Below, piece by piece: positions 921 to 8,123 of a stretch of DNA of 12,156 nt. Below the pieces are notes generated by a model. The model searched no databases and had not been told where the DNA came from. It worked only from the letters and a program-made list of their open reading frames with translations. The DNA lies in UHGV virus genome UHGV-0071740; one strand, written 5' to 3'. Source of the stretch: a virus. The translations under genes were made by a program, and so were the position numbers. Numbering within the stretch: position 1 is the stretch's first letter; the number at the start of each line of letters is the position of its first letter.

Positions 921-962
921 CTGTGTGTTGCAATCATCTCTGTATTGCAGCTTGTATTGCTT
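921..962. repeat. direct repeats of TGT(G)TTGCA-type motif (candidate integrase arm-type sites, left end)
   Basis: TGTGTGTTGCAA 923-934, TGTATTGCAG 941-950, TGTATTGC 953-960, the last two 12 bp apart; the same motif recurs at 7234-7256 near the other end. Confidence 0.55.
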
Positions 963-2212: not shown

Positions 2213-2434
2213 ATGAAAAAAATGGCAATTGTTGATAAAAAGGGTCTGGAGTACATTCCTAACATCGATCGTATGATCCGTGAGAAAGAATGTCGGGAGC
2301 TAACCACTCTTGCAAACAGCACACGCTGGAAGCTGGAGAAGGAAGGAAAATTTCCTAAGCGGATCAAGATTGGTTCCACTGCTGTTGCATATCGTCTTTC
2401 AGAAGTGCAGGCATGGATTAGGGGAGAGTGGTAA
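2213..2434 (+). CDS. alpA: AlpA-family (CP4-57 type) DNA-binding regulator / excisionase-like protein
   Basis: 73-aa ORF starting 2 nt after the int stop; small basic protein with ...KRIKIGSTAVAYRLSEVQAWIRGEW, typical of AlpA/Vis-like winged-helix proteins that accompany satellite integrases. Confidence 0.75.
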   Translation: MKKMAIVDKKGLEYIPNIDRMIREKECRELTTLANSTRWKLEKEGKFPKRIKIGSTAVAYRLSEVQAWIRGEW

Positions 2435-3835
2435 GAATTTAGACAGTGGATGGAATCCTATGGGGGGAACCCATAGGGTTTTAAATAACATAAATTCAAA
2501 AACGTGCGTAGTTGATGAGATTATATAATTAGGTGGTAAGTATTGAACTATTTCTCCATCTTCTTCAAAAATATGAATAACTCTTGGGAATAATTCAGGG
2601 CGTATAGGATTTAATGCCTTCGGATTATGAAACATGTATATTGCTGTACACCATGGTTCTTGATATGAAGGTGCATTGACAAGAGCAGTAAAAGGCATTG
2701 GGGTACAGCCTTCATCAGTTTTAATACCTCTAACGATGGATTTGACATTTTTTTGTTCAATCCCTGCCACTACTCCCATTCTATCAAATTTTGGGATGGT
2801 GGCATGTGTCGCAAGTAATATGGCTGAGACATTCTCATTTTTATTAGAGCCGAAAAAATTAGATGGTATACTTCGATTTTCAAATAAATGTTGTTCAATT
2901 TTACTTCCAGAATCCATATCTACACCATACAGATAGCTTTGTAGTGCTGGCATTGATATACTCATCGAAAGTCTGTGTGAGTAATCGTGTAAAGCAATAA
3001 TGAAAGGCTTTCCTTTTGTATGATCTAGTTCCCAATAGCATAATTTTAAGGGTTCAGGTTTATGCCTAACTTTCTTTAATAGAGTGCGGGCAAATTTGAA
3101 TGGCATTTGTTCTTTTACATATCTCTGAAGATCTTCTACTGCCTCATGATCAAGTATCAATTTCTCGGTAGGTTCCTCTTGTTCTGCAACTGTGGCAGCT
3201 TCTACAGCAATATCAATGCCATTTTTTGAGATAATATAATCAGGTTGAGCATAATCTCTGCATATTACGAAATCCATTTCGTAGAAAACTGCGTTTAGAT
3301 AAAGTTCGAATAAGCGAGAGTTAAATGAAGCACTCTGGAAATCTCTGATGAATATTCCATCAGGATCTTTACACCAATAAGCTAACTCTTGCATAACAAT
3401 AAATGCAGGATAGTGTTTGGGTTCCTCAAGTAGCATTCTTAGATAAACGTTTTTTTTATGTTCTGGAACTTTGGCTAGGAATATTGAAAATGCCGACTCT
3501 GATTCGTCACCCTGTATAAAACAACCGTTCTTGTGTAGTGATAATAGCTCTGGTATGGCTTTTTCCATATCAGTAATTAAATCATCTTTAGATTCACGGG
3601 ATACAATTACTTTAATCGCTCTAAATTTTTTATCTAAATCCCTACCTAGAAATATAGCGTTGTAATCATTATCTATTTTACAAAAAACAATTGTTGCTAA
3701 GATTGTGACATCATCCTTTATAAATTTGAACCAACAGATTTCCTCCGAAAAGGTTTTTACGTATGGTGTACGACCATAGAAAAATACATCAAATTGTTCT
3801 TTACTGATTTCTAGCATTTTGTGACTTGTTGTCAT
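2399..3835 (-). CDS. hypothetical 478-aa protein, AT-rich, no family assignable by eye (candidate defence/effector cargo)
   Basis: Long uninterrupted minus-strand ORF; start ATG at 3835 preceded by AAGGA Shine-Dalgarno; lies 23 nt downstream of the RHH gene on the same strand; strongly AT-rich relative to its surroundings. Confidence 0.7.
   Translation of the reverse strand: MTTSHKMLEISKEQFDVFFYGRTPYVKTFSEEICWFKFIKDDVTILATIVFCKIDNDYNAIFLGRDLDKKFRAIKVIVSRESKDDLITDMEKAIPELLSLHKNGCFIQGDESESAFSIFLAKVPEHKKNVYLRMLLEEPKHYPAFIVMQELAYWCKDPDGIFIRDFQSASFNSRLFELYLNAVFYEMDFVICRDYAQPDYIISKNGIDIAVEAATVAEQEEPTEKLILDHEAVEDLQRYVKEQMPFKFARTLLKKVRHKPEPLKLCYWELDHTKGKPFIIALHDYSHRLSMSISMPALQSYLYGVDMDSGSKIEQHLFENRSIPSNFFGSNKNENVSAILLATHATIPKFDRMGVVAGIEQKNVKSIVRGIKTDEGCTPMPFTALVNAPSYQEPWCTAIYMFHNPKALNPIRPELFPRVIHIFEEDGEIVQYLPPNYIISSTTHVFEFMLFKTLWVPPIGFHPLSKFLPLSPNPCLHF
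2456..2482 (+). terminator. rho-independent terminator-like hairpin after alpA
   Basis: TCCTATGGG (2456-2464) / CCCATAGGG (2470-2478), 5-nt loop GGGAA, then TTTT 2479-2482; begins 22 nt after the alpA stop. Confidence 0.55.
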
Positions 3836-4616: not shown

Positions 4617-4904
4617 ATGAAAAATAAATTTTCTGGCTTTATTGCCAGCGGTCAAACTCATTCAAAAATCAGCCTTGGGGATATTTTCAAAGACAGCTAT
4701 GGCTATCGGGTAAAGATTATTTCGGTTGATGATCGTCGTGTCTCTTATTTGCGTGATGGTTATGATTTTGAATGTGTTATGCCGCGTCAGCAGTTCGAAA
4801 GAGATTTCATTCTGGTAAAAAATTGCAAGACAGATAATCAGAGGCGTGCCGCAGGCTATATCCGTAAAATTCGGGCAATGTTAGTTGCCGGAGGTAACAA
4901 ATGA
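4617..4904 (+). CDS. hypothetical protein (95 aa), translationally coupled to primase
   Basis: ATG 4617 preceded by GGAGA; its stop overlaps the primase start (ATGA at 4901-4904). Confidence 0.55.
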   Translation: MKNKFSGFIASGQTHSKISLGDIFKDSYGYRVKIISVDDRRVSYLRDGYDFECVMPRQQFERDFILVKNCKTDNQRRAAGYIRKIRAMLVAGGNK

Positions 4905-6667
4905 AACGTGCTCCGAACTTAAAATACCAACCGCGCGACAAAATGACGGAAGTCATCATTTTTGCTGGCAGTGATGCCTGGAGCCATGCAAAAGAATGGA
5001 ATGAATGGGCAGGTAAGCATATTGCAGCAGATGATACACCACCAGTCATTCTGGGTACGGAACAACTGGAAAACCTGGATGATATGCAAATTATCGATGA
5101 AGGCCGTCATTATGTGCGTGTTTATCGTGCCGGAAAGATTGCAGAGAAAAGTCTGACGAAGGTTGCGACATTACTTGCTATTGCAGGCGTAAAGGAAGCA
5201 CGTTGTTACCGTAGCTTTGTTGATCGAGAGCCTGAAGACTGGACTCCGCGCCTTGTCGGCCTAAAAGCTGAAGCGGAGCATGGGGAAAGTCTGGTGATTG
5301 AACTGCCAGTGAAGAAGGCTGAGCGCAAAAATGACGAGCGTGCTTCATCTTTGGCGTTGAATCAGATGGGGGCCAGCCAGCGCGGTGAAGTTCTCCTTGC
5401 ACATTACGGCGGCGAACTGGCAATCAATGCCGACTCTGACACCGTTCATCATTACAACGGCGTTGTATGGGAGCCGGTTCAGGATAAAGAGTTACAGCGT
5501 GCTATGGCGCAGATTTTCATTGATGCGGAGATCAGCTATTCGCAGAACGCTATTAAATCGGCGGTAGATACCATGAAGTTAAGTTTGCCTGTAATGGGGA
5601 ATACAGCCCGTAACCTGATTGGATTCAGTAACGGGGTATTTGATACCAGAACTGGTAATTTTCGGGAGCATAACAAAAACGACTGGTTGTTAATTGCCAG
5701 TGAATTACCTTTCAGCCCACCAGCAGAGGGGGAAACGCTGGCAACACATGCGCCGAATTTCTGGAAGTGGTTGCGCCGTTCGGTGGCTGAGAATGACCGC
5801 AAGGCAGATCGCGTACTGGCGGCATTATTCATGGTGCTGGCGAACCGGTACGACTGGCAGTTATTCATTGAGGTAACAGGGCCGGGGGGAAGTGGTAAAA
5901 GTGTGATGGCGGAGATTTGCACCATGCTGGCGGGTAAGGCTAATACAGTATCAGCAAGCATGAAGGCGCTGGAAGATGCAAGGGAACGTGCGTTAGTGGT
6001 TGGCTTTTCGCTGATTATCATGCCGGATATGACCCGCTACGCTGGTGATGGGGCAGGGATTAAGGCCATTACAGGCGGTGACAAGGTGGCAATTGACCCG
6101 AAACACAAAGCCCCCTATTCAACGCGTATTCCGGCAGTAGTGCTGGCGGTTAACAATAACGCCATGTCATTCAGTGACCGCAGCGGGGGGATCTCACGTC
6201 GTCGGGTGATATTCAATTTTTCGGAAGTTGTACCGGAGAACGAACGCGATTCGATGCTGGCGGAAAAAATAGAAGGTGAGCTGGCGGTAGTGATTCGTCA
6301 TCTGCTTACAAGGTTTGCTGATCAGGACGAAGCCAGACGCCTGTTATATGAGCAGCAGAAATCTGAAGAAGCACTGGCGATAAAGCGAGAGGGGGATTCG
6401 CTGGTGGACTTCTGCGGTTATCTCATGGCATCGGTAATGTGTGATGGCCTGTTAGTGGGTAATGCTGAAATTGTGCCATTCAGCCCACGCAGGTATCTCT
6501 ATCATGCCTATCTTGATGAGCTGTTCGTTCCATGTGCATCACCGAGTTTATTACGAAGAGTACCTAACCCATTTACAACTGCAGAACAACCGCCGAGAAT
6601 TTGTTTGAAGATATTTTCAGTATGTTGGTCGGCAGATAGGTTAAGTTCTTTTGAAAGAGTTTTATAA
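4901..6667 (+). CDS. P4-family primase/helicase-like replication protein (D5_N-like region, SF3-type P-loop), C-terminus apparently truncated or chimeric
   Basis: 588-aa ORF; Walker A GPGGSGKS encoded near 5880-5900; hydrophobic-D Walker B-like LIIMPD; overall pattern of phage/plasmid primase P4-family C-terminal domain; the last ~50 codons are antisense to the HEPN gene and look like read-through. Confidence 0.8.
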   Translation: MKRAPNLKYQPRDKMTEVIIFAGSDAWSHAKEWNEWAGKHIAADDTPPVILGTEQLENLDDMQIIDEGRHYVRVYRAGKIAEKSLTKVATLLAIAGVKEARCYRSFVDREPEDWTPRLVGLKAEAEHGESLVIELPVKKAERKNDERASSLALNQMGASQRGEVLLAHYGGELAINADSDTVHHYNGVVWEPVQDKELQRAMAQIFIDAEISYSQNAIKSAVDTMKLSLPVMGNTARNLIGFSNGVFDTRTGNFREHNKNDWLLIASELPFSPPAEGETLATHAPNFWKWLRRSVAENDRKADRVLAALFMVLANRYDWQLFIEVTGPGGSGKSVMAEICTMLAGKANTVSASMKALEDARERALVVGFSLIIMPDMTRYAGDGAGIKAITGGDKVAIDPKHKAPYSTRIPAVVLAVNNNAMSFSDRSGGISRRRVIFNFSEVVPENERDSMLAEKIEGELAVVIRHLLTRFADQDEARRLLYEQQKSEEALAIKREGDSLVDFCGYLMASVMCDGLLVGNAEIVPFSPRRYLYHAYLDELFVPCASPSLLRRVPNPFTTAEQPPRICLKIFSVCWSADRLSSFERVL

Positions 6668-7173
6668 AGCTCTGACATTTCAATATTTTTATTATTATAC
6701 TGAATGCCCATATCATCAAGAATGTGTTTGCAAACTGTTTCAAGAAGTGTTCTTGCGGAGGTTATCGCACCATCCGGATCTGTATGGCGCCGTTCAAGTG
6801 CTTTTATCCAAACGGCGTGGACTCCATCCTCGTTAAACTTTCTTAATACATCAGATATGTCTTCATCCGCTGGAGCTTTATTTTTCCCTTCTAGATAGTC
6901 CAGCATCGGCTGAAATGCCTTATAAATCAAATCTCTCCGGGGGGCATACTTTTCAGTCTTTTTTATAAATCCCCAAAATTCTTTTAGTGAGCGATTAGTT
7001 CTCACAAACTCTGGTAATAGCTGATGTAAAGGAGGATTTTGTAAGAAATATGTTCTTAGAAGCAAATAATCATTATTAGCTTCATCCTGGGCTCCTGTAG
7101 CTCTTGCAATTAGTATGTTTTGAAGCGCTACTGCGCGCTCTAGGTCATTTTGAAGGGTATCTATAATATTCAT
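6508..7173 (-). CDS. HEPN-type abortive-infection-like protein (Abi_C-like), 221 aa
   Basis: Minus-strand ORF, AT-rich; C-terminal GLGTLRNKLGDAHG contains an R-x6-H motif of the HEPN/Abi_C type; only 7 residues follow the motif His, so the protein may be C-terminally shortened. Confidence 0.55.
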   Translation of the reverse strand: MNIIDTLQNDLERAVALQNILIARATGAQDEANNDYLLLRTYFLQNPPLHQLLPEFVRTNRSLKEFWGFIKKTEKYAPRRDLIYKAFQPMLDYLEGKNKAPADEDISDVLRKFNEDGVHAVWIKALERRHTDPDGAITSARTLLETVCKHILDDMGIQYNNKNIEMSELYKTLSKELNLSADQHTENIFKQILGGCSAVVNGLGTLRNKLGDAHGTNSSSR

Positions 7174-7233
7174 AACAAATCTTTATTCACTTCATTTGTG
7201 GGTTGATAATTGAATGGTTTGTACATTGATTTC

Positions 7234-7256
7234 TGTGTATTGCAGTGTGTATTGCA
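7234..7256. repeat. tandem direct repeat TGTGTATTGCA x2 (candidate integrase arm-type sites, right end)
   Basis: Copies at 7234-7244 and 7246-7256 (12-bp register), about 80-100 bp inside the right junction; same motif and orientation as the left-end copies. Confidence 0.55.
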
Positions 7257-7332
7257 ACATAGCCATTCAGGTAGAGATTATGCTCTATTTTTCCTCTTAT
7301 ATCATTCACATACTTACACCATTGACTCATGT

Positions 7333-7342
7333 AGCCGAAGCA
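7333..7342. repeat. right copy of 10-bp direct repeat AGCCGAAGCA (attR core)
   Basis: Identical to 803-812; lambda-like E sequence resumes from here. Confidence 0.8.
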
Positions 7343-8123
7343 TGAAGTGAATCCGCAGATGACCCTGCGTCGCCTGCCGGATGAAGATCCGCAGAATCTG
7401 GCGGACCCGGCTTACCGCCGCCGTCGCATCATCATGCAGAACATGCGTGACGAAGAGCTGGCCATTGCTCAGGTCGAAGAGATGCAGGCAGTTTCTGCCG
7501 TGCTTAAGGGCAAATACACCATGACCGGTGAAGCCTTCGATCCGGTTGAGGTGGATATGGGCCGCAGTGAGGAGAATAACATCACGCAGTCCGGCGGCAC
7601 GGAGTGGAGCAAGCGTGACAAGTCCACGTATGACCCGACCGACGATATCGAAGCCTACGCGCTGAACGCCAGCGGTGTGGTGAATATCATCGTGTTCGAT
7701 CCGAAAGGCTGGGCGCTGTTCCGTTCCTTCAAAGCCGTCAAGGAGAAGCTGGATACCCGTCGTGGCTCTAATTCCGAGCTGGAGACAGCGGTGAAAGACC
7801 TGGGCAAAGCGGTGTCCTATAAGGGGATGTATGGCGATGTGGCCATCGTCGTGTATTCCGGACAGTACGTGGAAAACGGCGTCAAAAAGAACTTCCTGCC
7901 GGACAACACGATGGTGCTGGGGAACACTCAGGCACGCGGTCTGCGCACCTATGGCTGCATTCAGGATGCGGACGCACAGCGCGAAGGCATTAACGCCTCT
8001 GCCCGTTACCCGAAAAACTGGGTGACCACCGGCGATCCGGCGCGTGAGTTCACCATGATTCAGTCAGCACCGCTGATGCTGCTGGCTGACCCTGATGAGT
8101 TCGTGTCCGTACAACTGGCGTAA
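7333..8123 (+). pseudogene. E: major capsid protein E, C-terminal fragment (codon ~80 to end), no start codon of its own
   Basis: Frame open from 7335, with an in-frame TAG at 7332-7334 just upstream; translation ...KPKHEVNPQMTLRRLPDEDPQN...DEFVSVQLA matches the remainder of lambda gpE. Confidence 0.95.

Follow-up and report, generated by a model that had tools for sequence, protein, structure and literature searches.

Doubled repeats on both arms of a capsid-gene satellite as likely arm-type sites of its tyrosine integrase

The DNA considered here is a stretch of 12,156 nucleotides of the virus genome UHGV-0071740, to whose full length we refer as the window. Its flanks consist of lambda-type head and tail genes (D, E, FI, FII, Z, U, V, G and H, assigned with Pfam), and gene E is split by an insert of 6.5 kb with a G+C content below that of the flanks: the 5' part of the gene runs to position 812 and the 3' part begins at position 7343. 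When 541–812 is joined to 7343–8123, so that one copy of the core is kept, an uninterrupted reading frame is obtained; the 341-aa protein read from Met 568 matches Pfam Phage_cap_E (E 1.1e-71), with the insertion near position 80 of the profile. The insert is bounded by a 10-bp identity block, AGCCGAAGCA, of which the window holds two exact copies against 0.04 expected (two copies were reached in none of 200 shuffles). A tRNA gene was considered as the integration target and rejected: the window contains none, and the target is a protein gene. The features of the locus, in window coordinates, are as follows.

568–812, + strand: helper prophage major capsid gene (lambda E type), 5' part, interrupted by the satellite; from ORF joining
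803–812, + strand: attL copy of the identity block AGCCGAAGCA, the crossover core; direct repeat
861–873, − strand: perfect match TATCAAAAGATTA to the IHF consensus WATCARNNNNTTR, found in a scan of the reconstructed attP; candidate bending site
924–932, + strand: degenerate extra motif copy TGTGTTGCA with one mismatch, 17 bp upstream of the pair; doubtful site
941–961, + strand: int-side doubled motif TGTATTGCA-gct-TGTATTGCT, half-sites 941–949 and 953–961; candidate P'-type arm sites
976–2211, + strand: tyrosine integrase, 411 aa; Pfam Arm-DNA-bind_3 at residues 7–93, Phage_integrase at residues 213–377
2213–2434, + strand: alpA, 73 aa, excisionase-type wHTH regulator; Pfam Phage_AlpA, E 2.7e-15
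2399–3835, − strand: PD-T7-1 defence protein, full-length homologue; PADLOC, E 9e-154
within the insert: HicB/YlcI-like protein and small ORFs; DUF4222 protein
4901–6667: D5-type primase
6508–7173, − strand: AbiJ-like protein, truncated; Pfam Abi_C, PADLOC AbiJ, E 8e-17
7234–7256, + strand: far-arm doubled motif TGTGTATTGCA-g-TGTGTATTGCA, core 9-mers 7236–7244 and 7248–7256; candidate P-type arm sites
7333–7342, + strand: attR copy of the identity block AGCCGAAGCA; direct repeat
7343–8123, + strand: capsid gene E, 3' part; from ORF joining

The element is a helper-embedded PICI (HE-PICI) of site group E:Phage_cap_E:80, residing in the capsid gene of a lambda-like prophage. It lies inside a prophage late gene without replacement sequence, precise excision would restore gene E, and int, alpA and pri share their strand with D, E, FI and the genes further on. 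Tommasini, Mageeney and Williams (2023, NAR Genom Bioinform; PMC10111431) described 491 HE-PICIs at 14 prophage late-gene sites, 201 of them at E:Phage_cap_E:80, and proposed read-through from the helper late operon as their route of activation. With the type element of that study, 11capE, the window element shares the target codon region of capsid E, the gene order from int and alpA to pri, the co-orientation with the late operon, and the motif that is the subject of this report, in two co-oriented doubled copies at distances of 81 and ~132 bp. It differs in being 6.5 kb long, against ~11 kb, and in lacking the late zone and the 3' end of the primase gene.

This loss is best described by comparison with full-length relatives. 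Two of them (L002 and L003) are ~11 kb long, occupy the same capsid-gene site, and additionally carry ssb, capsid and decoration genes of their own, an HTH gene and terS. The window element retains the PICI order of int, alpA, variable zone, DUF4222 and D5_N primase; relative to positions 6449–11173 of L003, it has undergone a clean 4.7-kb deletion, with its junction at 6513, that took the 3' end of the primase gene, ssb, the satellite's own capsid and decoration genes, the HTH gene, terS and the 3' end of the AbiJ-like gene. A preliminary description of this DNA had called the element a complete att-int system: this holds for int, alpA, attL and attR, but not for the satellite as a whole, from which the late zone and primase 3' end are gone. 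The window satellite is, then, a deletion derivative or remnant in which the att-int-alpA module is intact; its ori, which in PICIs lies downstream of pri (PMC10111431), and its packaging functions have probably been lost. As a result of the deletion, the convergent primase and AbiJ-like ORFs are fused at their ends. Both variable hotspots hold anti-phage defence genes, PD-T7-1 in one and the AbiJ-like gene in the other; in relatives, the cargo at these places includes DUF2971, SWIM and other Abi genes.

The same preliminary description had pointed to a repeated motif near both ends of the element, all copies in one orientation, and we confirm this in the sequence: there are four exact copies of TGTATTGC, at 941, 953, 7236 and 7248, all on the + strand. 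Within each arm two copies stand in a 12-bp register (941/953 and 7236/7248). On the int side, the second half-site, TGTATTGCT (953–961), has a single mismatch, at its last base; on the far arm the longer unit TGTGTATTGCA occupies 7234–7244 and 7246–7256. The left copies are 112–149 bp inside attL and the right copies 77–99 bp inside attR, in keeping with the 80–150 bp first given. The left copies also fall, as had been noted, inside a TTG-started ORF (844–2211); alignment with all relatives puts the start of the integrase at the ATG of position 976, and hence the int-side pair 15–35 bp upstream of the gene.

Four exact copies compare with 0.55 expected, a count reached in one of 200 shuffles, and the doubled pattern TGTATTGC-N4-TGTATTGC is found twice against 0.01 expected even when up to two mismatches are allowed (two were reached in none of 200 shuffles). 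The loose count of 9-mers with at most one mismatch, six against 3.9 expected, is not significant by itself, and for that reason the exact and doubled patterns were examined instead: the motif signal resides in the exact copies and in their pairing. A similar density of the motif throughout the window, which would speak against a site function, was not seen. Outside the element ends, the 12,156 bp hold a single match with at most one mismatch, TGTCTTGCA on the − strand at 4824, and the doubled pattern occurs at the ends only.

The preliminary description had counted three copies on the left and two on the right, all in a 12-bp register. The two 12-bp pairs are borne out; the copy at 924 is degenerate, 17 bp out of step with the pair, and not conserved. 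In relatives it reads TGTGCGTTGCA, TGCGCGTTGCG or TATGCGTTGCA (TGYGCGTTGCR, at least two mismatches), and in an alignment of five int-side arms, whose integrases are 83–100% identical, the pair is invariant and the 924 copy is changed at two to four positions. What is conserved, then, is one doubled motif per arm, rather than three copies plus two, and the third left copy (924–932) is, by this comparison, probably not a site of the same kind. Both it and a TGTACATTGA stretch at 7220 were considered as conserved sites and rejected when compared with relatives.

The distances of the two pairs from the core agree with those reported for HE-PICIs. Counted from the core start, the int-side pair begins at 138 bp, in line with the distance of 132 ± 2 bp from the attP centre given in PMC10111431; the first far-arm copy is exactly 97 bp before the core, and the end of that pair is 81 bp from the attP centre, as published. 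In window coordinates, 7256 + 81 = 7337, which lies inside the core (7333–7342) and corresponds to 807 in attL; 807 + 132 = 939, close to position 941, where the left pair begins.

The motif, the places where it lies and the arm-site hypothesis have all been published before. PMC10111431 reported that every HE-PICI attP contains the doubled motif tgTGTATTGCantgTGTATTGCa twice, co-oriented, at 81 ± 2 bp on the upstream and 132 ± 2 bp on the downstream side of the centre, and proposed that its binder is the arm domain of the integrase, AlpA or an unknown protein that binds DNA. Since that study reported both the doubled motif and the arm-domain option, the finding as first stated for this DNA was already known, and in that form adds little. 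Of the papers searched, none that mentions HE-PICIs tests the doubled motif, and a literature search on arm sites of P4 integrases returned nothing specific.

Among 5,426 complete E. coli genomes, 177 carry an integrase gene at least 95% identical to that of the window, and in 172 the identity is at least 99% at the DNA level. All four loci that were examined (L001, L002, L003 and the window) have the insertion in the capsid gene. L002, which was chosen by similarity to the int region and not by its motif, is particularly instructive: it has the same integrase, other cargo (DUF2971) and an unrelated far arm, within which two exact copies of TGTATTGCA are 12 bp apart, the first exactly 97 bp before the core. 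The copies stand at −97 and −85 in every one of 14 different far-arm sequences at the capsid site. The att copies of L002 (strain E1) are also of interest in that they differ from one another, the identity block being AAACCCAAGCA at attL (1580–1592) and TAGCCGAAGCA at attR (12535–12547). They have only AAGCA in common, which places strand exchange in the right part of the window's 10-bp repeat; by this sequence comparison, the integrase tolerates target variation to the left of the AAGCA portion.

A search of genome contigs with the integrase yielded three close relatives only; more distant ones were reached through DNA pattern scans of viral contigs. A scan of 2.9 million viral contigs for the doubled motif gave 120 loci, from which the 14 far-arm variants mentioned above were taken. 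Because these were retrieved by the motif, its retention in them is circular and only the spacing is independent; the independent evidence otherwise comes from loci chosen by integrase or int-region similarity (L002, L124, L125, L128 and L129). The pair is present on both arms in the integrase-selected loci from Kosakonia (L124, integrase 89% identical) and Cedecea (L125, 83%), in L129, and, with one mismatch in the far-arm pair, in L128. The same motif is also found upstream of integrases that are only 50–57% identical to that of the window and that target other late genes. PICI or capsid-E hallmarks are carried by 97 of the 120 loci, and the other 23 are, by inspection, mostly HE-PICI ends at other late-gene sites, together with ~10 unrelated low-G+C phages; this distribution makes the doubled motif highly specific to these elements. 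The search of the whole window and of related elements that had been suggested at the outset thus finds pairs at element ends, and at fixed positions in the relatives.

These comparisons also dispose of the notion that the repeats arose by chance in AT-rich intergenic DNA. The insignificant loose 9-mer count is what that notion would predict, but two exact doubled motifs are far above expectation, they stand at the same position in many relatives and in other genera, and the hallmark distribution among the 120 viral loci is hard to reconcile with coincidence; we regard chance as scarcely credible, and as already refuted by the comparative sequence data.

Two observations on individual loci may be recorded here. 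L128 (E. coli 90-9280) is a case of one satellite inside another: the HE-PICI is inserted in the ClpP-protease/capsid fusion gene of a second PICI, which occupies tRNA-Ile2, in agreement with the C:CLP_protease:110 cases of PMC10111431. Separately, five viral contigs of 26–42% G+C (L013, L014, L029, L046 and L091) belong to unrelated phages that have TGTATTGCA pairs or arrays but no PICI hallmarks; in L014 there are four TTGTATTGCAAA-like units. These arrays may be operators of another regulator.

Another informative group of elements is that of the gram-negative PICIs that integrate at the 3' end of the chromosomal fis gene, which we retrieved through their att identity block. Their integrases are 40–52% identical to that of the window, a range that overlaps the 50–57% of HE-PICI integrases at other late-gene sites, and their alpA is not adjacent to int as it is here. 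In agreement with PMC10111431, they lack TGTATTGCA. That study also considered the doubled motif to be unique to HE-PICIs and absent from fis PICIs, and here our sequence comparison contradicts it: the fis elements have position-equivalent doubled motifs of their own, in the same 12-bp register, with sequences that differ by integrase subclade (TGTATAAACA, GTGGGGTAC, GTGGGGCACA, GTGCAGTCAG, GTGTAACTAT, GTTGTCA and GTGTATCACT). On the int side, next to int, the first copy is ~143 bp from the core (integrases 44–52% identical where both the int-side motif and the core spacing were measured), and on the far arm the motif is ~90 bp before the core. The class-specific pair is present on the far arm, co-oriented, for GTGCAGTCAG in L167, L132 and L163, for GTGGGGTAC in L135 (the same contig as L169) and for TGTATAAACA in L140; the far-arm pair of GTGTAACTAT in the complete element L172 is more degenerate. 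In L176-type elements int begins 233 bp further on, yet the distance from pair to core is still 143 bp, which indicates that the pair is anchored to the core and not to the start of the gene.

This last point bears on the proposal that the int-side pair is mainly an operator of int (and alpA) and the far-arm pair an operator of the divergent cargo gene, the likeness to arm sites being incidental. Such an arrangement would be in keeping with the closeness of the left pair to the int ATG, with the location of the right pair 61–83 bp upstream of the AbiJ-like gene start (7173, − strand), and with the precedent of KplE1 IntS, which controls int from sites at attL (PMC2951348). However, the far-arm cargo varies (AbiJ-like, DUF2971 and others) while the distance from pair to core remains exact, and the L176-type pair follows the core and not int. 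Promoter and terminator scans found nothing overlapping either pair; the one weak promoter-like match, at 853–882, is upstream of the int-side pair. Moreover, autoregulation by the integrase would fit an arm-site model and is not an alternative to arm sites. That the pairs are mainly operators is, in our judgement, highly improbable.

We next consider the protein that might read the motif. The integrase contains an arm DNA-binding domain (PF13356, Arm-DNA-bind_3; E 3.7e-19) at its N-terminus, and this domain matches by sequence the solved N-domains of CP4-like integrases (3JU0 and 3JTZ). Co-variation was assessed with 16 representatives (120 pairs), the motif register across classes being aligned by eye on a shared xTG anchor. 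Similarity between motifs correlates with that between integrase residues 1–95 (Spearman 0.74, Mantel p 2e-4), in a set that is small and phylogenetically structured, with eight members sharing one motif, and for which the Mantel test corrects only partly. The corresponding value for the rest of the integrase is 0.07 and not significant. For AlpA, the raw correlation is 0.49, falling to 0.07 once the integrase N-domain is controlled; when instead AlpA is controlled, the N-domain retains 0.72. That the motif follows the N-domain, and neither the rest of the integrase nor, with the N-domain controlled, AlpA, favours the arm-site reading.

Individual comparisons point the same way. L183 and L176 have AlpA proteins that are 98.9% identical and integrase C-terminal parts that are 79.7% identical, but they have different motifs, and the identity between their N-domains is only 58%. 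Conversely, HE-PICIs that share TGTATTGCA have N-domains that are 63–72% identical, against 43–54% for the rest of the integrase; measured against the window integrase, N-domain identity in this clade is 65–72%. Invariant positions in the HE clade number 39 of 95 in the N-domain and 68 of 316 elsewhere; of five positions that separate HE from fis integrases, three (Q23, F44 and W59) are in the N-domain. A single-sequence AlphaFold model of the N-domain has a pLDDT of 44.8 and is unreliable, such that the placement of these three residues on DNA-contacting strands is only suggestive.

The case for AlpA, acting at the pairs as a directionality factor and/or as a transcriptional activator, deserves separate attention. 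AlpA is tightly conserved in HE-PICIs and was among the published candidates (PMC10111431), its identity does correlate with motif class before correction, and direct repeats spaced by about one helical turn are typical binding sites of directionality factors (RDFs; PMC7498355). If AlpA were the binder, the sequence of the site should follow that protein, and this is not what we find: nearly identical AlpA proteins are associated with different motifs, both in L183 and L176 and in L154 and L153 (86% identical, same recognition helix), and HE-PICIs that share TGTATTGCA have AlpA identities down to 42%, with recognition helices as different as NSTRWKLE, RNHRYYLE, RRHRSLLE and QAGLYRAE. RDF sites are normally on one arm only, and the pairs described here sit on both. 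We consider it quite unlikely that AlpA is what the pairs bind.

Short tandem repeats are also typical of replication origins, and a host factor or another satellite protein (a replication initiator acting on iterons, or a regulator from the Bro zone) might be envisaged as the binder. Such an assignment would be covered by the unknown DNA binding protein that PMC10111431 left open. A host factor is difficult to reconcile with motifs that differ between satellite subclades of the same host range; as for satellite proteins, elements that share the motif differ freely in their Bro, cargo and replication genes. Iterons would be expected at the ori, which lies downstream of pri and not at element ends (PMC10111431), and the window has lost that region and kept both pairs; elements with a RepA helicase (L127 and L128) also share their motif with the window, which encodes a D5-type primase. 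We judge a binder of this kind to be very unlikely.

We return to the integrase. Every computational comparison that was made (domain content, fixed positions on both arms, co-variation) favours the layout of P and P' arm sites that the preliminary description had proposed: the repeated motif is distinct from the core, is present on both arms at a fixed core distance across relatives, and changes along with the arm-binding domain, as in the comparison of L183 with L176 and in the contrast of 0.74 for the N-domain with 0.07 for the C-terminal part. We therefore think it likely, on these sequence grounds, that the two TGTATTGCA pairs are arm-type sites of the satellite's heterobivalent tyrosine integrase.

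The following scheme can be envisaged. In the attP circle, one pair would be ~81 bp to one side of the crossover centre, and the co-oriented pair, immediately upstream of int, ~132 bp to the other side. The four half-sites would be held by the N-terminal domains of four integrase protomers, and the core sites at AGCCGAAGCA by the C-terminal domains, with the arms folded into an intasome that would integrate the satellite into gene E. Excision, which restores the capsid gene, would be carried out by this assembly too, with AlpA as the directionality factor. Binding itself, its 4:4 stoichiometry and an IHF-type bend are what we infer from this arrangement. The IHF-consensus match at 861–873 is situated between the core and the int-side pair, in the longer arm, and is retained in Kosakonia L124 and present with one mismatch in Cedecea L125; no comparable conserved match to the consensus was found when the short arm of the reconstructed attP was scanned. 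This match may be a bend site, and we treat it as a candidate only.

The arrangement resembles the arm sites of phage lambda Int (P1, P2 and P'1–P'3), for which the introduction of PMC2951348 outlines the layout of a heterobivalent integrase: in both cases there is a separate N-terminal arm-binding domain, and short repeats distinct from the core, about one helical turn apart, are present on both attP arms. The satellite differs in having four half-sites in two pairs, against the five sites of lambda, with another motif; in having an N-domain of the Arm-DNA-bind_3 (P4/CP4) type; in the location of int, which is inward from attL and followed by alpA; and in that its sites are candidates predicted from the sequence. 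A second useful comparison is with the KplE1 IntS/TorI system, in which int is likewise next to attL and reads inward, with arm-type sites that lie between the core and the start of int. Panis et al. (2010; PMC2951348) found that KplE1 IntS represses its own promoter through sites that overlap attL. Given the same location of the candidate sites here, integrase occupancy of the int-side pair could damp int expression. Binding and autoregulation are experimental findings for KplE1; in the window, the promoter-like match is upstream of the pair and does not overlap it, and because nothing promoter-like overlaps either pair, autoregulation of int through the int-side pair remains an inference.

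More tentatively, we propose a family-wide modular code of arm sites, in which each PICI subclade, fis PICIs included, has its own doubled motif, specified by the N-domain, at ~90 bp before and ~140 bp after the core, with N-domain and sites swapped as a unit. The pair L183 and L176 suggests that this unit can be exchanged independently of the core-binding and catalytic part of the integrase. From the sequence comparisons at hand, we consider such a code reasonably probable.

As to what is new, the comparisons narrow the published three-way choice between integrase arm domain, AlpA and unknown protein to the arm domain of the integrase. The far-arm pair is exactly 97 bp from the core despite unrelated far arms, and the motif tracks the integrase N-domain; a further, modest addition concerns fis PICIs, which have the doubled-motif architecture too, in sequences that are specific to the clade and follow the N-domain. 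If arm motif and N-domain do form a swappable unit, compact att-int modules of this kind could become orthogonal integration systems, and such exchange could help to explain how satellites gain new target sites in the late genes of their helpers. A modular code, if true, would explain how HE-PICIs retarget the core to 14 late-gene sites with one arm motif.

Two further features of the fis PICIs were noted. In L176, L184 and L152 the doubled motif and int are separated by ~190 bp of additional sequence; within it, ~60–190 bp upstream of int, three tandem copies of GTTGTTCCA and three inverted copies of GGAACAAC constitute a second repeat system. Finally, in L141, at ~7260–7530, two fis PICIs whose arm motifs differ seem to lie in tandem: TGTATAAACA occurs twice in the far arm of the first, at −90 from the shared core, and GTTGTCA twice in the int-side arm of the second.
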